From Candidatus Bathyarchaeia archaeon (GTDB lineage Archaea > Thermoproteota > Bathyarchaeia > 40CM-2-53-6): a DNA stretch of 64,000 bases. Below, one piece after another: positions 23,482 to 42,247 of this stretch. How positions within the stretch are numbered: the stretch's first letter is position 1; each line of letters starts with the position of its first letter. Under the pieces are notes generated by a model that worked only from the letters and a program-made list of their open reading frames with translations, ran no database searches and had not been told where the DNA came from. The position numbers were made by a program, and so were the translations under genes. Location of the stretch: contig JBEKFP010000003.1 in the NCBI GenBank assembly GCA_050013255.1, forward strand, positions 96,001-160,000, in the 5' to 3' direction.

Positions 23482-24054
23482 ATGTCGCAGGAACGCATAC
23501 GGAGCTTCATCGCAGTTGACCTCGATGAGGCTTCAATACGCGAGCGAATAGTCGCGGTTCAGAGGGGTTTGGAGCAGACACGCGCACAACTGAAAATCGT
23601 GGAGCCAGAGATAATGCATCTGACACTCCGCTTTCTAGGAGAGGTTCCACAGACAACGGTTGGGAAAGTTGAGGAGGCGATGGATTCTGTGCGTTTTCCG
23701 CCGTTCGAAGCAGAGTTCACCGGCCTCGGAGTGTTCCCAAACCCGAGGCGAATCAACGTTGTCTGGGTGGGAATGAAGCATGGGCAAGAGCAATTGAACG
23801 GTATTTTCCAGCAGCTTGAACCGAAGCTTAGGCAGATTGGCTTGCCACCCGACGACAAGGGTTTCAGCCCTCACATGACAATCGCTCGCGTCAAGTCCGC
23901 TATGAACAGGGATGCCTTGGCGCAGTATGTTGAGAGTAAGCGTAGCGAAGAGTTCGGGAAGATGGCGGTAAAGGCTGTGCGATTAAAGAAGAGCACATTG
24001 ACCCCTAGGGGGCCGATTTACACAACAATCCACGAGGTAATAGCTTCGCCCTAA
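23482..24054 (+). CDS. thpR: RNA 2',3'-cyclic phosphodiesterase (2H family, LigT)
   Basis: Two HxT motifs: HLTLRFLG and PHMTIAR. Confidence 0.93.
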   Translation: MSQERIRSFIAVDLDEASIRERIVAVQRGLEQTRAQLKIVEPEIMHLTLRFLGEVPQTTVGKVEEAMDSVRFPPFEAEFTGLGVFPNPRRINVVWVGMKHGQEQLNGIFQQLEPKLRQIGLPPDDKGFSPHMTIARVKSAMNRDALAQYVESKRSEEFGKMAVKAVRLKKSTLTPRGPIYTTIHEVIASP

Positions 24055-24062
24055 CGGATCAA

Positions 24063-25502
24063 GTGTACGTCTTGGACAAGTTCGGAGAGGTTTGTGATGC
24101 CGTTAAGAAGAAGATTGCTCCTTCACTGAAATTGAAAAGCGCAGTTGAGACAAGGGCTGAGCAGATTAGGGCTGCTGTCGAGCAGGAGTGCGTTAAGGCG
24201 AATCTCGAAGCTGAGGTCCGCTTGGACGGCTCCGTCGCGAAGGACACATGGATACGGGATCATGCCGACGTCGATATTTTCATGAGAGTAAGCCCACAGC
24301 TAACCAAAACGCAACTGCGAGATGTGTGCTTGCCAATTGCACGCGAGGCGCTTCTCCCTCACACAATCGTCGAGAGGTATGCGGAGCACCCGTACATAGA
24401 ATCAACAGTAGAATTGGGTAGTAAGAGTGAGCTTCGGGTCAACGTTGTCCCATGCTACAAAGTCGAGAAAGGTAAATGGCTAAGCGCCACAGACAGGAGC
24501 CCCTACCACACCGAGTACATTAACCAACACTTCACTAAGGAGCAGCACGACGAAGTTCGCTTGCTCAAGGCCTTCATGAGGGGGATAGGGAGCTATGGAG
24601 CAGACATCAAAACTGGCGGCTTCAGCGGCATGCTATGCGAGACGCTCATAGTTTCGCGCAAGGATTTCCATCGTGTTGTTCAAGATTTCATGGGATGGCA
24701 TGAGGACGAAGTCATAGACATTGAGAACTACTACGAGGGCAGGCGTGCAGAAGCGCACCGCGTCTTTCGAGAACCATTGATCGTCATCGATCCTGTGGAC
24801 AAAGGCCGCAATTTAGCAGCCGCGGTCCGAGAGAACCAGCTCTGCAATTTTGTCGCTGCATGCAGGCAACTTGACTGGAAACCCACATCTGCTCTATTCG
24901 CGCAACCAAAAGTGAAGGCGTTGACCCCCGCTAATTACCGGAAACTCATTCGAACCCGTGGGTCGACAATCATCTGCCTAGTCGTGGGAAGAATAGATGC
25001 AGTTGTCGACATTCTATGGAGCCAACTCTACCGCACGCAGAGAGCGCTCGTCAACCTTCTGGAGAACAACGATTTCAAAGTGGTCCGATCATGGGCGTGG
25101 AGCGATGAAAAATCGTTGAACATAATTCTCTTCGAACTGGAGCAAGGATGTTTGCCTCGTCCGAAACGCCACGATGGTCCTTCAGTTTACGGGTTTGATG
25201 AGAGTGCTTCGTTCCTATCAAAACACGCGCCGAATCCCAATACAATCTCGGGCCCTTGGATTGAAAATGGCCATTGGGTTGTAGAAAAGAGGAGGTCAGT
25301 TGTTTCCGCAAATGCCTTGCTCAAGTCAGCACTTCGTTCTGGAGGGAAAGACGTCGGCGTTGCTTCTTTGCTTGCTGAGTCCTTCAGGAAGAGGTTACAA
25401 ATTCTTGAAAATGAAAGGATTGTAAGGCTGATCGTCTCAAATACGGAGTTTGCCAAGGCCATGAGAACTTACCTCTCAGGAAGGCCAGCATGGTTTGCAT
25501 GA
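24063..25502 (+). CDS. cca: Class I CCA-adding tRNA nucleotidyltransferase
   Basis: GSVAKDTW..DVDIF, YAEHPY, VPCY, DRSPYHT, GFSG, DPVD..RNLAAA. Confidence 0.95.
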   Translation: MYVLDKFGEVCDAVKKKIAPSLKLKSAVETRAEQIRAAVEQECVKANLEAEVRLDGSVAKDTWIRDHADVDIFMRVSPQLTKTQLRDVCLPIAREALLPHTIVERYAEHPYIESTVELGSKSELRVNVVPCYKVEKGKWLSATDRSPYHTEYINQHFTKEQHDEVRLLKAFMRGIGSYGADIKTGGFSGMLCETLIVSRKDFHRVVQDFMGWHEDEVIDIENYYEGRRAEAHRVFREPLIVIDPVDKGRNLAAAVRENQLCNFVAACRQLDWKPTSALFAQPKVKALTPANYRKLIRTRGSTIICLVVGRIDAVVDILWSQLYRTQRALVNLLENNDFKVVRSWAWSDEKSLNIILFELEQGCLPRPKRHDGPSVYGFDESASFLSKHAPNPNTISGPWIENGHWVVEKRRSVVSANALLKSALRSGGKDVGVASLLAESFRKRLQILENERIVRLIVSNTEFAKAMRTYLSGRPAWFA

Positions 25503-26253
25503 AAACGAAATACCCCTACATGGGCTTCTGCAGTCCCGTTACTCACACATACTCACCTATCCTGGTACAGATCCCGATGAAGCGAAGGAAAGGATAATGG
25601 AGCTTTCAGAGATTGGGATTTCCGCTCTTCGTTTCCGAGGGGTCACCCAGATAGGCGGTATCCCAATTCTTGGGAAAGGTTGCGTTGGCGTCGTGACGCA
25701 GGCTCGTCTTGAAGGGAAACTTGTCGCTTTGAAGATCCGGCGTCTGGACGCCGACCGGCCATCGATGAACGACGAGGCTAGGCTGTTGCGGTTGGCGAAT
25801 AGCGTTGATGTTGGGCCGCGTTTGATTTCTGCATCAAAGAACTTTCTAGCAATGGATTTTTTCCGAGGCATTCCACTATTCCGATGGGCAGAGGGTTCAA
25901 GGACAGGTGGAAGAGTGTTGAGGGAGCTAGTCACACGCCTCGTTACATGTTGCTTCATGCTTGACTCGATTGGGCTTGACCACGGGGAGTTGAGCCACGC
26001 CCCCAAGAATGTTCTTGTTAACAAGTTTGGCCATCCCTGTATTGTTGATTTCGAGAGCGCGAGCACGGCAAGGCGCGTCGCAAACGTCACATCACTACTT
26101 CAATACTTCCTGTTCGGAAGGGTGTCGAAAACGCTTCACGCTTCACAACTCTTCCCGGACAGAAGGAAGATCGTGAAGGCCCTAGGCGAATACAAGCACG
26201 ATGGGTCGGTTGAAAATTTCCAGAGCGTGTTAGGCGCGCTTGGCCTGTTATGA
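25495..26253 (+). CDS. RIO-like Ser/Thr protein kinase
   Basis: GKGCVG, VALKIRR, HGELS, IVDFESAS. Confidence 0.88.
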   Translation: MHENEIPLHGLLQSRYSHILTYPGTDPDEAKERIMELSEIGISALRFRGVTQIGGIPILGKGCVGVVTQARLEGKLVALKIRRLDADRPSMNDEARLLRLANSVDVGPRLISASKNFLAMDFFRGIPLFRWAEGSRTGGRVLRELVTRLVTCCFMLDSIGLDHGELSHAPKNVLVNKFGHPCIVDFESASTARRVANVTSLLQYFLFGRVSKTLHASQLFPDRRKIVKALGEYKHDGSVENFQSVLGALGLL

Positions 26254-26292
26254 AAGGTTCTTATGAGCGCTCATTTCTTTTCTGCCTCGAAC

Positions 26293-26472
26293 GGGGCCGT
26301 CGTCTAGAAGAGACTGCTTAGCAACTCTCTGGACAACTTGGTCTGGGAACACGATTCCGCCAACAGGATACCAGAGCGCAAATGCGCGCGGTGAACCTGG
26401 GGCGCTGGCGTCCCTAAGAACGAAAAGTCTCAGGGCCAGAGGTCGTGGGTTCAAATCCCACCGGCCCCACCA
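26293..26472 (+). tRNA. tRNA-Pro(GGG) with four introns (26308-26336, 26345-26364, 26375-26395, 26411-26441) and encoded CCA
   Basis: Removing four BHB-bounded inserts gives GGGGCCG TC GTCT AGCTTGGTCTA GGAT A CCAGC CTGGGGC GCTGG CGGTC GTGGG TTCAAAT CCCAC CGGCCCC A CCA, a complete cloverleaf. Confidence 0.92.
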
Positions 26473-26610
26473 TCTAACGAACCGTCTACCCTCAGCGAAA
26501 TTGCAACATTCGCATTCCATCTCAAAAAGAACGGCTAACGAGACTCCACGATTAGAGGAACAGTCCAGACACTCAAAGCCATAGGAAGAAACGTAAACCT
26601 GTTAGAACGA
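26473..26610 (+). pseudogene. Integrase remnant fused to the tRNA 3' end
   Basis: IPPAPPSNEPSTLSEIATFAFHLKKNG*RDSTIRGTVQTLKAIGRNVNLL matches the N-part of 35049..36086; TAA at 26536-26538. Confidence 0.88.
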
Positions 26611-26622
26611 ATAGCCACGATA

Positions 26623-26713
26623 AATTTCTGAGTAGAGACATAGTGCTAACGGCAGAGTAGTTTATCCACTTGTTAGCAGAAAACACTTGTGATAGGGACT
26701 CCAAGGACTTTAT
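26623..26713 (+). repeat. Conserved post-integrase element, copy 1
   Basis: Shares AATTTCT.AGTAGAGACAT, TGTTAGCAGAAAACACTTGTGAT and CAAGGACTTTAT with 36277-36377. Confidence 0.8.
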
Positions 26714-26737
26714 CCTATAATTGATACGCTAGAGGGC

Positions 26738-27526
26738 CTACCTCTTTCTCTTCCGCTGCCTAAGCAGCATAACTAGAGTGACCACGAACAGAGCAGCGAA
26801 TACTACAGCTCCGCCAGCATAGAGCTGGTCTGCTGAAAACGTGAATGCCTGGGTCAGGGGCTGCGAGATAGCTTCGGTTTTGAGAAGGTTCATCGTCGTA
26901 GACGCAGGAATGGGGTTCGTAGCAGTGGTGTACATTGTGAAAGTTTCGACTTGAGACTTTGCGGACCACACGTTCAATGTGTACTGGACAGACTTTCTGC
27001 TATTTCCGGTCGTTAGAATCCAATAGTACTGGCCATCGCCCGGAGCTGTCCAGGCGGTTTCATAGGATGTCAAGATTTGAAACATTGCAAACACCGCAGG
27101 CCAAGCGCCGTTGTAACCATTTTGTGTGCCACATACAACGACATTGGGTGTTATAGGAGAATAATCGGGTTCATTTATGATGTTCAGAGAAGCAAACTGA
27201 GCTGCCGTCATAATATAGAAAACAAGCGGATTGTTGTTCGACGTTATCGAAAAGGAAACTTCAGCGCCCTGGGTCACGACAAAATAGTCATACACGATGG
27301 GACAGAGTTGAAGCAAGGAACCCTGGGAGTACACATAGATTCCAGGTGTTCCACCCAGCTTGCCTGCATAAGGAGAGGAACCATAATCGGTAGTGTAGGT
27401 TGTTGTCCCATAGCTTGTAGCTACAGGGGTGGTGACCGTGGTATACGCCTGACTTTGAACTGCTGGCAAACTGACAACTGGAAGCATAAGTAGAATCGTT
27501 ACTAGAAGGCGAATAAATTTCGACAA
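26738..27526 (-). CDS. Secreted membrane-anchored hypothetical protein
   Basis: Signal peptide, Thr-rich segments, C-terminal TM + RQRKRKR. Confidence 0.75.
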   Translation of the reverse strand: MSKFIRLLVTILLMLPVVSLPAVQSQAYTTVTTPVATSYGTTTYTTDYGSSPYAGKLGGTPGIYVYSQGSLLQLCPIVYDYFVVTQGAEVSFSITSNNNPLVFYIMTAAQFASLNIINEPDYSPITPNVVVCGTQNGYNGAWPAVFAMFQILTSYETAWTAPGDGQYYWILTTGNSRKSVQYTLNVWSAKSQVETFTMYTTATNPIPASTTMNLLKTEAISQPLTQAFTFSADQLYAGGAVVFAALFVVTLVMLLRQRKRKR

Positions 27527-28163
27527 GGCTACTAAGTAGCTTTCATGGTTTACAATAAATCGCTTTGTATATCATACGGCATTGTTCTCGACTGATTGTG
27601 AGTCAGACGACTTCGTACCGAACGTTACAAGGACCGTTATAATACGATTAAGGACTACATGCGTCTTCGAGACGCCTAATCCATACTTTATCATCAGAGC
27701 GGCCAACTCTCAACAGCTTCAAGAATTGGAAGTTCCCGCCACTATCCGAAAGAGTCTTCAGCAAAGGCAGCTGCACGCTGGTTTGTTCCGGCAACGCCAT
27801 AGTATGGTCATTCAGATTGAGAATGGCACTCTAGGTTAAATCGTGACTCGTAATTGATTCTTTCCCAAGAATCAGCCCAAGAGACAGTTTTGGGTTCCTC
27901 TCGCTCGTCATGCTCGTCTACTTTCACAATTCACTGACCGTTAGACAGAAGCATCGAGTCCAGTTATTTGCTTACATGATTCACGGCAAGAACCGTGAAT
28001 GAAGTTGAGCTGTCCGATTTGTGACCTGGAACTTCTCGGCCAAGATAAATGCCCGCTGAAACGTTGCGAACGATGTTGCTTATGGTTTGAGCTGCAGGAT
28101 GACGGCAAGCTCATTCCCCTACGAATTGATAATCTAGCGAAATATCTCTAGAGCTGTCTAAGA

Positions 28164-32816: not shown

Positions 32817-32873
32817 GTGGAACCCTCATAGAACCCACGATATTGGTGGGTTCGTATCCCACGGGCCCCACCA
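32817..32873 (+). repeat. att-like repeat, type B
   Basis: gtggaaccctcataGAACCCACgatattgGTGGGTTCgtatcccacgggccccacca; 54/57 identical to 42134-42190. Confidence 0.9.
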
Positions 32874-35031: not shown

Positions 35032-35076
35032 CATTAGTCCCACAAATCGTGGGTTCAAATCCCTCCGGGCCCACCA
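35032..35076 (+). repeat. att-like repeat, type A left arm joined to a CCCTC-type right arm
   Basis: cattagtCCCACaaatcGTGGGttcaaatCCCTCcgggcccacca. Confidence 0.88.
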
Positions 35077-36086
35077 CCTTTGGCAACTTCAAGACTGCAA
35101 CTGACAATATTGCCGACCTAGTGGAACCCGCATGGAACCCACGATATTGGTGGGCTCGTATCCCACCGGCCCCACCATTTAACGAACCGACCCCACTCAG
35201 TGAACTAGCGGCATTTGCTTTCTATCTGAAGAAGAACGGCTACCGGGATTCCACGATTAGAGGAACCGTGCAGGCTCTAAAGGCGTTAACGCATCACGTT
35301 AACCCCCTAGACCCTGAATTAGTGAAAGGCTACCTAGCTAGAGCAGACTGTTCCATTAATCGAAAAGGGAAGGTTTGCGAGGACCTAGACCGGTTCTATA
35401 AGTACAAAGGTATTCAGTGGGCCAAACCGAATTATCAACGAGTAGATACTCTGCCTTTTGTTCCCACAACCCAAGAAGCAAACGACCTGATAGCCTGCCT
35501 TGGCCCGAAAATGTCCGTGTTCGCTCTTTTGCTGAAAGAAATAGGTTGCCGGTTCAATGAGGGTTTCGGCCTGAGATGGCAAGACATCAACGTAGAAAAT
35601 AGTACCGTAACGATTACTCCGTTGAAGGGGTCCTATGCAAGGCAAATGAAGATAAGCCCCAAACTAATGGGACTACTCAATAGCCTTCACAAGAAATGGC
35701 CAACATACGTTTTCAGAAATCATAAAATTGAATTGTGGAAATCCTCTAAGCGATTTAGAACCGAATACATGTTTCAGAGACGCAGAGCCTCAATCAAGCT
35801 GAATCAGCCCAGACTAAACCTAGTCAGTTTCAAGAGCCTACGACATCACTACGCATGTAGGCTCTATGAATCAACGAAAGATATTCTCTTTGTTCAAAGA
35901 CAGATGGGACATAGAAGCCTGTCAAACACGGTTCGCTATACTCGGATGGTCAATTTCGATGCTGAAGACGATTTCATAGTGAAAGCGGCCAAAAATAAGA
36001 GCGAAGCGGAACCTCTGATAGAAGCGGGATACCAATACGTCGTTACCACGCCGGAAGGTTACATGTTATTCAGTAAGAGGAAATAA
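35049..36086 (+). CDS. Tyrosine recombinase/integrase; start codon lies within the att repeats (GTG 35049 or GTG 35121)
   Basis: GCRFNE (R), LKGS (K), FKSLRH, QMGH, TVRY (Y). Confidence 0.93.
   Translation: MGSNPSGPTTFGNFKTATDNIADLVEPAWNPRYWWARIPPAPPFNEPTPLSELAAFAFYLKKNGYRDSTIRGTVQALKALTHHVNPLDPELVKGYLARADCSINRKGKVCEDLDRFYKYKGIQWAKPNYQRVDTLPFVPTTQEANDLIACLGPKMSVFALLLKEIGCRFNEGFGLRWQDINVENSTVTITPLKGSYARQMKISPKLMGLLNSLHKKWPTYVFRNHKIELWKSSKRFRTEYMFQRRRASIKLNQPRLNLVSFKSLRHHYACRLYESTKDILFVQRQMGHRSLSNTVRYTRMVNFDAEDDFIVKAAKNKSEAEPLIEAGYQYVVTTPEGYMLFSKRK
35121..35177 (+). repeat. att-like repeat, type B, inside the integrase ORF
   Basis: 56/57 identical to 42134-42190. Confidence 0.92.
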
Positions 36087-38082: not shown

Positions 38083-38123
38083 CATTAGTCCCACGAATCG
38101 TGGGTTCAAATCCCACCGGCCCC
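38083..38123 (+). repeat. att-like repeat, type A
   Basis: cattagtCCCACGAaTCGTGGGttcaaatCCCACcggcccc. Confidence 0.92.
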
Positions 38124-38212
38124 TATTAAGAAGACTTTGTCGTCTGTTCACAGCCATTTTCGCTTGGAAATGTTCCGTCATAATTCATTTAATCGGGTTT
38201 GTAATGGTTCGG

Positions 38213-41308: not shown

Positions 41309-41352
41309 TATTAGTCCCACGATTTGTGGGTTCAAATCCCACCGGCCTCACC
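41309..41352 (+). repeat. att-like repeat, type A
   Basis: tattagtCCCACgatttGTGGGttcaaatCCCACcggcctcacc. Confidence 0.9.
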
Positions 41353-41800: not shown

Positions 41801-42247
41801 TTGTTTAGTTTACAGCAAGCAATCATGAAAGAATTGAACTGCCCAATGTGTCTAAGCCCGTTATCGTTAGCGAGCTTAGAGCAAATTTGGCGAGGCCCAG
41901 ATTTCGAACATCGGTTAACGTACTACTGTCATCTGAACCTACTACTGCAATCTGAACCTCTAGGTCAGCATGCGGAGAGGTTTAAGATATTTGATATTGA
42001 GTGCAAAATTCAGCGAGACAATTGCGCGAGGGACTTACTTGACACTCGAACCCTCAATATTGAGGGTTCGTATCCCTCCGGCCCCTTCACGTTTCGAAGC
42101 TTTAGGACTGCGGCTGACAATGTCGTCAGCCTAGTGGAACCCGCATGGAACCCACGATATTGGTGGGTTCGTATCCCACCGGCCCCACCACTTTCCTCTT
42201 TTCGAAAACCGTCAGAGTCCAGAACGCGAGGAGGATTAAATAGTTAA
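41801..42247 (+). CDS. ORF reading through two att repeats; candidate int(N) fragment
   Basis: GSYPSGPFTFRSFRTAADNVVSLVEPAWNPRYWWVRIPPAPP matches the integrase N-terminus. Confidence 0.45.
   Translation: MFSLQQAIMKELNCPMCLSPLSLASLEQIWRGPDFEHRLTYYCHLNLLLQSEPLGQHAERFKIFDIECKIQRDNCARDLLDTRTLNIEGSYPSGPFTFRSFRTAADNVVSLVEPAWNPRYWWVRIPPAPPLSSFRKPSESRTRGGLNS
42047..42085 (+). repeat. att-like repeat, type C, with perfect 24-bp palindrome
   Basis: CGAACCCTCAATATTGAGGGTTCG tatccctccggcccc. Confidence 0.88.
42134..42190 (+). repeat. att-like repeat, type B (last copy seen)
   Basis: gtggaacccgcatgGAACCCACgatattgGTGGGTTCgtatcccaccggccccacca. Confidence 0.92.

Follow-up and report, generated by a model that had tools for sequence, protein, structure and literature searches.

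INTRODUCTION

Reviews and the paper describing tRNAscan-SE 2.0 place the maximum for archaeal tRNA genes at three introns, with Pyrobaculum calidifontis as the richest genome (PMC4033280, PMC8450103). In these sources, the multi-intron genes of the Thermoproteales are credited to Sugahara et al. 2008 (as relayed in PMC4033280 and PMC8450103). A preliminary description of the locus treated here relied on the same figure of up to three, which agrees with the textbook value (PMC4033280, PMC8450103) but is outdated, because genes with four introns (PMC11291895) and with five (10.64898/2026.10.13.758758) have been reported. Supplementary Data 4 of Valentin-Alvarado et al. 2024 contains columns for a fourth intron, and the genes that carry four are those for Arg-TCT, Ile2-CAT and Leu-GAG in Freyarchaeia and for Trp-CCA and Lys-TTT in Atabeyarchaeia (PMC11291895). 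A preprint by Goswami et al. 2026 describes as many as five intervening sequences per tRNA gene, and states that tRNAscan-SE misses 30% of intervening sequences, mostly in the D arm (10.64898/2026.10.13.758758). Outside the archaea, the ordered removal of three introns has been demonstrated experimentally in Cyanidioschyzon merolae (PMC3728597).

The gene described in this report lies in a 64,000-nucleotide stretch of DNA (hereafter the window) from an uncultured Candidatus Bathyarchaeia archaeon. Bathyarchaeia rank among the most abundant archaea of sediments and peat. When open-licence papers were searched for Bathyarchaeia or Bathyarchaeota in combination with tRNA introns or bulge-helix-bulge (BHB) motifs, no description was found, a result that leaves absence from the literature unproven. 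We assign a probability of roughly 0.9 to the reading that this locus is a functional, single-copy Bathyarchaeia tRNA-Pro(GGG) gene, whose predicted precursor of ~185 nt would make use of protein-only archaeal splicing four times.

RESULTS

A tRNA-Pro(GGG) gene in five exons

The features of the locus are collected in Table 1. When the exons were cut by script, every exon and intron size given in the preliminary description was reproduced, and the four insertion points were found to match in standard tRNA numbering, with no intron at the canonical 37/38 site. The five exons are colinear inside 180 nt, and the gene is neither split nor permuted.

Table 1. Coordinates of the tRNA-Pro(GGG) gene, its surroundings and other loci of the same genome discussed in the text. 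Positions without a prefix refer to the window; the slash within a bulge marks the predicted cut.
Feature	Position	Strand	Remarks
tRNA-Pro(GGG) gene	26293-26472	+	180 nt
Exon 1, 15 nt	26293..26307	+	tRNA positions 1-15; 5' acceptor strand, U8, C9, 5' D-stem strand, A14, G15
Intron 1, 29 nt	26308..26336	+	at 15/16; BHB geometry; central helix GTCT/GGAC, bulges AG/A and AA/C, 5-bp inner stem AGAGA/TCTCT
Exon 2, 8-nt micro-exon	26337..26344	+	positions 16-20b; D loop with G18 G19
Intron 2, 20 nt	26345..26364	+	at 20b/21; BHB geometry; central helix TGGT/GCCA, bulges CT/G and AC/A, inner stem GGAA/TTCC, 2-bp outer helix
Exon 3, 10-nt micro-exon	26365..26374	+	positions 21-30; 3' D-stem strand, A26, most of 5' anticodon-stem strand
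Intron 3, 21 nt	26375..26395	+	at 30/31; BHB geometry; central helix TACC/GGTG, bulges AG/A and AA/C, inner stem GCGC/GCGC
Exon 4, 15 nt	26396..26410	+	positions 31-45; anticodon loop CUGGGGC (anticodon GGG, G37), 3' anticodon-stem strand, C44, G45
Intron 4, 31 nt	26411..26441	+	at 45/46; BHB geometry; central helix CTGG/CCAG, bulges CG/T and AG/G, inner stem CCCT/AGGG
Exon 5, 31 nt	26442..26472	+	positions 46-73 plus encoded CCA; T arm with loop TTCAAAT, 3' acceptor strand, A73
Promoter-like element	26252..26266	+	putative; BRE-like GAAAGG, then TATA-like TTCTTATGA
ThpR/LigT, RNA 2',3'-cyclic phosphodiesterase	23482-24054	+	TIGR02258; directly upstream of the tRNA gene
Archaeal CCA-adding enzyme	24063-25502	+	TIGR03671; directly upstream of the tRNA gene
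252-aa ORF	25495-26253	+	faint protein-kinase match only
Antisense ORF, 90 codons	26248-26520	-	spans the whole tRNA gene
tRNA-Pro 3'-end copies	32848-32870, 35051-35073, 35152-35174, 38102-38124, 41328-41350, 42165-42187	+	two flank families
Integrase ORF	35049-36086	+	tyrosine recombinase (PF00589, XerA-like)
Isolated 3'-end copy	G000:C2:295574-295605	-	another contig
Partial RF00005 match	G000:C3:122401-122469		17.7 bits; 3' part of the tRNA-Pro(GGG) gene
tRNA-Trp(CCA)	G000:C2:632656-632884	+	solver: five BHB-type introns (28, 19, 61, 19, 25 nt)
tRNA-Leu(CAG), 192 nt	G000:C1:524984-525175	-	heuristic four-intron solution
tRNA-Cys(GCA), 147 nt	G000:C2:242772-242918	+	heuristic four-intron solution
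RtcB	G000:C1:110968-113778	-	single 1039-codon open frame

The joined exons form a molecule of 79 nt that ARAGORN recognizes over its full length (1-79) as tRNA-Pro(ggg), which bears out the clean cloverleaf first proposed. This product has a G-C-rich acceptor stem of 7 bp, a 4-bp D stem with two G-U pairs, an 11-nt D loop containing GG, an anticodon stem of 5 bp, a 5-nt variable loop, a 5-bp T stem and A73, and it scores 16/16 in our own cloverleaf check. The identity elements for archaeal prolyl-tRNA synthetase (ProRS) are an NGG anticodon with G35, G36 and G37, plus A73. The same pattern is found here in the loop CUGGGGC and the discriminator A.

Splice-site motifs

All four splice sites follow one rule, by which the four exon bases before the last two pair with the four intron bases before the last two. 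Each intron accordingly shows 4/4 central pairs (Watson-Crick or G-U) and 3+3-nt bulges on opposite strands, and the helix and bulge sequences were re-read exactly as they had been given. Inner stems of 5, 4, 4 and 4 bp (introns 1-4) start directly after the first bulge, whereas outer helices reach merely 0, 2, 0 and 1 bp, and the motifs therefore belong to class HBh' rather than full hBHBh'. Three of the four central helices include a G-U pair. Given these pairs and the weak outer helices, all four motifs would depend on a broad-specificity endonuclease, an activity that homology predicts for this host.

As a control for chance, the exons were held fixed and each intron was shuffled 200,000 times, counting the shuffles that produced a perfect 4-bp helix and an inner stem at least as long as the real one. 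The real motif was matched by 9, 76, 8 and 25 of the 200,000 shuffles for introns 1, 2, 3 and 4, respectively, and a chance origin of the four motifs is thus excluded.

The gene was also examined with our own SPLITS-like solver, which seeks all BHB-like sites between a T arm and a matching acceptor strand and retains only such subsets as give a cloverleaf when removed. Given 23 candidate sites in a 177-nt stretch, it returned exactly these four introns as the sole solution, with the maximum cloverleaf score. The 180-nt precursor, folded to minimum free energy, contains the acceptor stem and the T arm simultaneously with all four central helices (z = -4.0 versus shuffles). No intron requires the prior removal of another.

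The suspicion that standard scanners would miss such a gene proved correct for two of them. ARAGORN reports 0 tRNA genes in the whole 64-kb window, and its intron option applied to the local stretch likewise returns none; Rfam gives no match to the unspliced gene at the gathering score, the tRNA model RF00005 producing a partial match to its 3' part (Table 1). Genes of this kind are missed entirely by ARAGORN and by Rfam at curated thresholds, so that genomes of the group will appear to lack essential tRNAs, and inferences about completeness or codon usage will be off.

Conservation and covariation among related genomes

A search of 60 related species genomes yielded 30 Pro(GGG) loci. In a near relative (Candidatus Bathyarchaeia archaeon isolate SPRUCE 525), the tRNA locus is 93% identical over 273 nt, and all differences within the gene fall in introns, mostly in their loops, with none in exons. 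Within the same genus (g1), a locus was recovered from 17 other species genomes (L004-L020), and in all of them the four introns are retained at the same positions, with lengths of 24-31, 20-21, 21-24 and 31-33 nt for introns 1-4. Their mature sequences are identical or differ by 1-3 bases. Exons in the genus are near-invariant (exon 1 is invariant among 19 aligned orthologues, and exon 2 is conserved in the alignment), while intron loops vary in sequence and length and intron stems carry compensatory changes. Intron 1 is typical in that its loop varies and its stem covaries. Nearly all orthologues encode CCA. A mismatch in one central helix occurs in L009, L011, L014 and L031, and in the first inner-stem pair in L013.

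Covariation was assessed on an alignment of 19 sequences for a precursor structure comprising the acceptor stem, the T stem, four central helices and four inner stems. The proposed structure is paired in 97.4% of cells, versus 33-46% when partners are slid by 1-3 columns, and for 12 pairs both partners have changed, most of these pairs lying within the inner stems of introns 1, 2 and 4. The inner stem of intron 4, which reaches 8 bp in some relatives, has compensatory changes in four pairs, and that of intron 2 is replaced by GACA/TGTC or GGGG/CCCC in relatives. None of 500 shuffles reaches the covariation values. Among related sequences, however, shuffling exaggerates significance, and more weight is carried by the slid control and by the compensatory pairs.

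Stepwise gain of introns

Orthologues from more distant genomes differ in their number of introns. The intron at 20b/21 is present in every Pro(GGG) orthologue examined of families f1, f3 and f9, and the intron at 30/31 in every resolved orthologue of these families; in family f2, BLAST alignments place a sequence homologous to the 30/31 intron at the same site. Three other genera of the same family (g5, g2 and g3) have three introns, at 20b/21, 30/31 and 45/46, and a contiguous 15/16 junction. In one genome each of g2 and g3 (L029 and L032), a fourth intron is located at 7/8 instead; this insertion of 25 nt has a perfect motif and was resolved only after the solver's limit on intron start was lowered. 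One genome of family f9 has four introns at the positions seen here, the first being 41 nt long. Family f3 has just two introns, at 20b/21 and 30/31 (19 and 16 nt), and none at 45/46. Family f2 also lacks the 45/46 intron and carries ~17 extra nt inside the T loop. Orthologues from other families of the order are L037 (genome G037), L038 (G060), L040 (G046) and L039 (G038); the first three were missed by the regular-expression search because the T loop is interrupted (BLAST). For L031, a five-intron solution obtained at the strict setting was rejected for its poor D arm, and the accepted solution has four introns with one central-helix mismatch and restores the conserved mature sequence.

With two introns in another family and three in sister genera, the Pro(GGG) orthologue has gained introns stepwise across the order, from two to three to four. 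Orthologues with two, three, four or an alternative set of four introns around a nearly unchanged mature sequence provide a datable series for the arrival of BHB introns. The T-loop insert of f2 and the two-intron state of f3 will be useful for dating these gains.

The same orthologues bear on the rival view of a genuine tRNA gene whose introns differ in number or in boundaries from those proposed, such that one insertion is retained as an enlarged D loop or two neighbours are removed as a unit. The boundaries were predicted from the motif alone, and that of intron 4 can be moved by one base (to 44/45) with no change in the product, the bulge geometry favouring 45/46. Insertions in the D arm are, moreover, the hardest to call (10.64898/2026.10.13.758758). 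We nevertheless regard other boundaries as very unlikely, because a complete motif accompanies every one of the four insertions and because relatives without intron 1 (g5, g2 and g3) or without intron 4 (f3 and f2) show the predicted junctions in their DNA. Those two exon-exon junctions are thereby confirmed without recourse to the motif.

tRNA genes and tRNA fragments elsewhere in the genome

A further point raised at the outset was whether the genome has another Pro(GGG) gene. The 13-nt core of exon 4 with its GGG anticodon was found once in the 2.46-Mb genome, the remaining Pro-like matches being a one-intron Pro(TGG) gene and solitary last-exon copies that lack a 5' part. Genome-wide, RF00005 recovers just 18 tRNA genes above threshold, and an anchor search yields 39 candidate 3' ends of tRNAs, almost all belonging to a gene that exceeds a mature tRNA in length. 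In a heuristic census, 25 of the 26 best-resolved tRNA genes are interrupted, averaging ~1.9 introns per gene at a median gene length of 117 nt; some of its solutions are doubtful (a 74-nt 'Leu' and a 228-nt 'Arg'), and it shows only that most genes are interrupted. The lone uninterrupted gene among about 30 resolved is that for Arg(CCG), at 75 nt.

The solver finds five BHB-type introns in the gene for tRNA-Trp(CCA), whose 77-nt product is accepted by ARAGORN and in which two of the five motifs have a central-helix mismatch. The tRNA-Pro(GGG) gene is therefore not the extreme case in its own genome, where heuristic solutions with four introns were also obtained for tRNA-Leu(CAG) and tRNA-Cys(GCA) (Table 1). 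The expectation that a gene with four introns would be exceptional fails on this tRNA-Trp gene as well as on the Asgard genes already known. BLAST searches with the four introns against the genome returned chance-level matches of 13-16 nt only, with no sign of recent copying of introns between genes.

Downstream of the tRNA-Pro(GGG) gene, the window contains six co-oriented copies of its T-arm/3' end (1-3 mismatches in 23 nt), whereas chance would give no such copy. Identity to the tRNA begins one base past the junction of intron 4 and exon 5. Two of the copies lie inside the 5' end of the tyrosine-recombinase gene. The array looks like a pile of att sites from integrating elements whose target is the last, uninterrupted exon alone. 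A further isolated copy is found on another contig.

These observations invite the suggestion that the locus is a decaying or silent pseudogene with insertions that are never removed, CCY codons being read by another tRNA-Pro. The one-intron tRNA-Pro(TGG) gene could read some proline codons, and the integrase-associated copies of the last exon show that the locus is a recombination target. In 19 genomes, however, the exons are near-invariant while the loops of the introns have diverged in sequence and in length, and the intron stems show compensatory changes; a pseudogene would not preserve eight intact splice-site geometries. The locus is also the sole gene with a GGG anticodon found in the genome. 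We consider a pseudogene very unlikely.

Splicing enzymes and a proposed route of maturation

The genome encodes two EndA paralogues and RtcB. For the first EndA paralogue (190 aa, G000:C2:171513-172085), the best matches are the catalytic alpha subunits of the heterotetrameric endonucleases from Aeropyrum pernix, Sulfolobus tokodaii and Pyrobaculum aerophilum (E 1.5e-38 to 2.4e-28), with its Tyr, His and Lys motifs aligned. One aligned segment is presumably the Crenarchaea-specific loop of published structures. The second paralogue (187 aa, G000:C1:301907-302470) is a divergent protein that fits beta-subunit models and in which no catalytic His is aligned. The host endonuclease is thus predicted to be an alpha2-beta2 heterotetramer of the crenarchaeal type. 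Endonucleases of this type have been linked to relaxed motifs at non-canonical positions (PMC4033280). At the level of genes, the host therefore encodes both a predicted relaxed-motif endonuclease and the RtcB ligase. Together with the cloverleaf, the motif geometry and the covariation in relatives, these genes back the original reading of the locus as Pro(GGG) with four non-canonical BHB introns.

In the RtcB gene, the Pfam match falls into two parts (profile positions 1-60 and 49-426) with ~480 codons between them, an insert of intein size.

A search for RNA sequencing runs covering positions 25000-28000 of the window returned none. From the anatomy and uniqueness of the gene, the geometry and covariation of its motifs and the enzyme genes, we infer the following course of transcription, cutting, ligation and order in the cell. 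Transcription from the BRE/TATA-like promoter would give a precursor of ~185 nt, in which the acceptor stem and T arm form and four BHB hairpin modules are chained between them. Each module would consist of a 4-bp helix between the exon end and the 3' part of the intron, two opposed 3-nt bulges and an inner intron stem (HBh', a relaxed BHB). The alpha2-beta2 endonuclease is expected to cut every bulge behind its second base, eight times in total, and RtcB would then join the 2',3'-cyclic-phosphate and 5'-OH ends. Trimming of the ends would come last, with the CCA already encoded.

The pairing of the exons suggests how these steps might be ordered. Three central helices use bases of the future D stem (10-13), positions 25-28 and the 3' anticodon-stem strand (40-43), and, within the introns, GGAC and CCAG imitate the partners of the mature fold (22-25 GGAU and 27-30 CCAG). 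Because of these shared bases and mimic strands, the precursor and mature folds are locally exclusive, and the cloverleaf could fold only as the introns leave. Exon 2 belongs wholly to the D loop and would be unpaired if all eight cuts came first. Since the two middle micro-exons have little or no pairing of their own, the precursor is probably processed by stepwise cutting and joining, intron by intron, or is held as a substrate throughout. The ordered removal known from Cyanidioschyzon offers a model for the handling of four introns, and the micro-exons pose the testable question of how an endonuclease and a ligase keep an 8-nt exon in place.

Upstream region and antisense reading frame

The putative promoter element lies 28-41 nt upstream of the mature 5' end, and its BRE part is purine-rich. 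It is the only conserved upstream block within the genus, and A/T-rich boxes like it are found at the same distance in other genera. The gene for the CCA-adding enzyme is 89% identical to that of isolate SPRUCE 525, where the tRNA locus follows as well. With ThpR/LigT and the CCA-adding enzyme encoded directly upstream, a neighbourhood of RNA-end processing adjoins a gene that needs eight RNA cuts repaired, which fits the theme and proves nothing.

The antisense frame of 90 codons that spans the tRNA gene has no Pfam match, and no gene with that product is on record. It is likely to be a false gene call wherever the tRNA goes unannotated. That the tRNA-like locus is a chance resemblance or a mere part of this listed 90-aa frame is a negligible prospect, given shuffle odds of 4e-5 to 4e-4 per intron and orthologue indels of 1, 2 and 5 nt that fall inside the frame and would break it.

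DISCUSSION

Although exceptional until 2024, four introns in one tRNA gene now have equals elsewhere and are no record. At the level of the lineage the result is more interesting than the single gene, presenting Bathyarchaeia as a further intron-rich group with a well-resolved series of gains for one orthologue. Heavy interruption of tRNA genes is thus not confined to the Thermoproteales and a few Asgard families. On balance, although by no large measure, we favour the view that this Bathyarchaeia family is a third independent and undescribed hot spot of tRNA introns, beside the Thermoproteales and the Freyr-, Jordi- and Atabeyarchaeia of the Asgard group, and that its introns are still being gained. 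This view is based on about two introns per gene, the interruption of nearly all genes, the presence of four- and five-intron genes and micro-exons of 8-10 nt, and on a fourth Pro(GGG) intron that occupies 15/16 in one genus and, in two genomes belonging to other genera, 7/8.

The nearest parallel is provided by the Asgard archaea (Freyarchaeia, Atabeyarchaeia and Jordiarchaeia), in which four BHB-type introns can occur in one gene, as in Freyarchaeia Arg-TCT and Ile2-CAT. There too, most introns occupy non-canonical positions, many in the D arm, scanners under-call them and nearly all tRNA genes are interrupted. The present host, in contrast, belongs to the Bathyarchaeia (Thermoproteota), and all four of its motifs are perfect in the central helix. 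Because the Asgard orthologues of Pro(GGG) have one or three introns, the Bathyarchaeia case looks like an independent accumulation.

The Thermoproteales (Pyrobaculum calidifontis, Thermofilum pendens and Caldivirga) are related at the level of the phylum and share the alpha2-beta2 type of enzyme, relaxed non-canonical BHB motifs and several introns per gene. As these genes are summarized in reviews, they reach a maximum of three introns, with 1.54 per gene in the richest genome, whereas four are present here in a genome that averages ~1.9 by the heuristic census. The same summaries describe intron sequences shared between tRNA genes, of which BLAST against the present genome gave no sign.

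Two systems are more remote. In Cyanidioschyzon merolae, nuclear tRNA genes likewise contain several BHB introns, at D-arm, anticodon and T-loop positions (PMC3728597), but this red alga is a eukaryote, its genes have at most three introns and some of them are permuted, whereas the gene described here is colinear. The split and tri-split tRNA genes of Nanoarchaeum equitans and Caldivirga maquilingensis employ the same logic of endonuclease and BHB motif to join their pieces. Those pieces, however, are drawn from separate loci, whereas the five exons of the Bathyarchaeia tRNA-Pro(GGG) gene stand in order within 180 nt.
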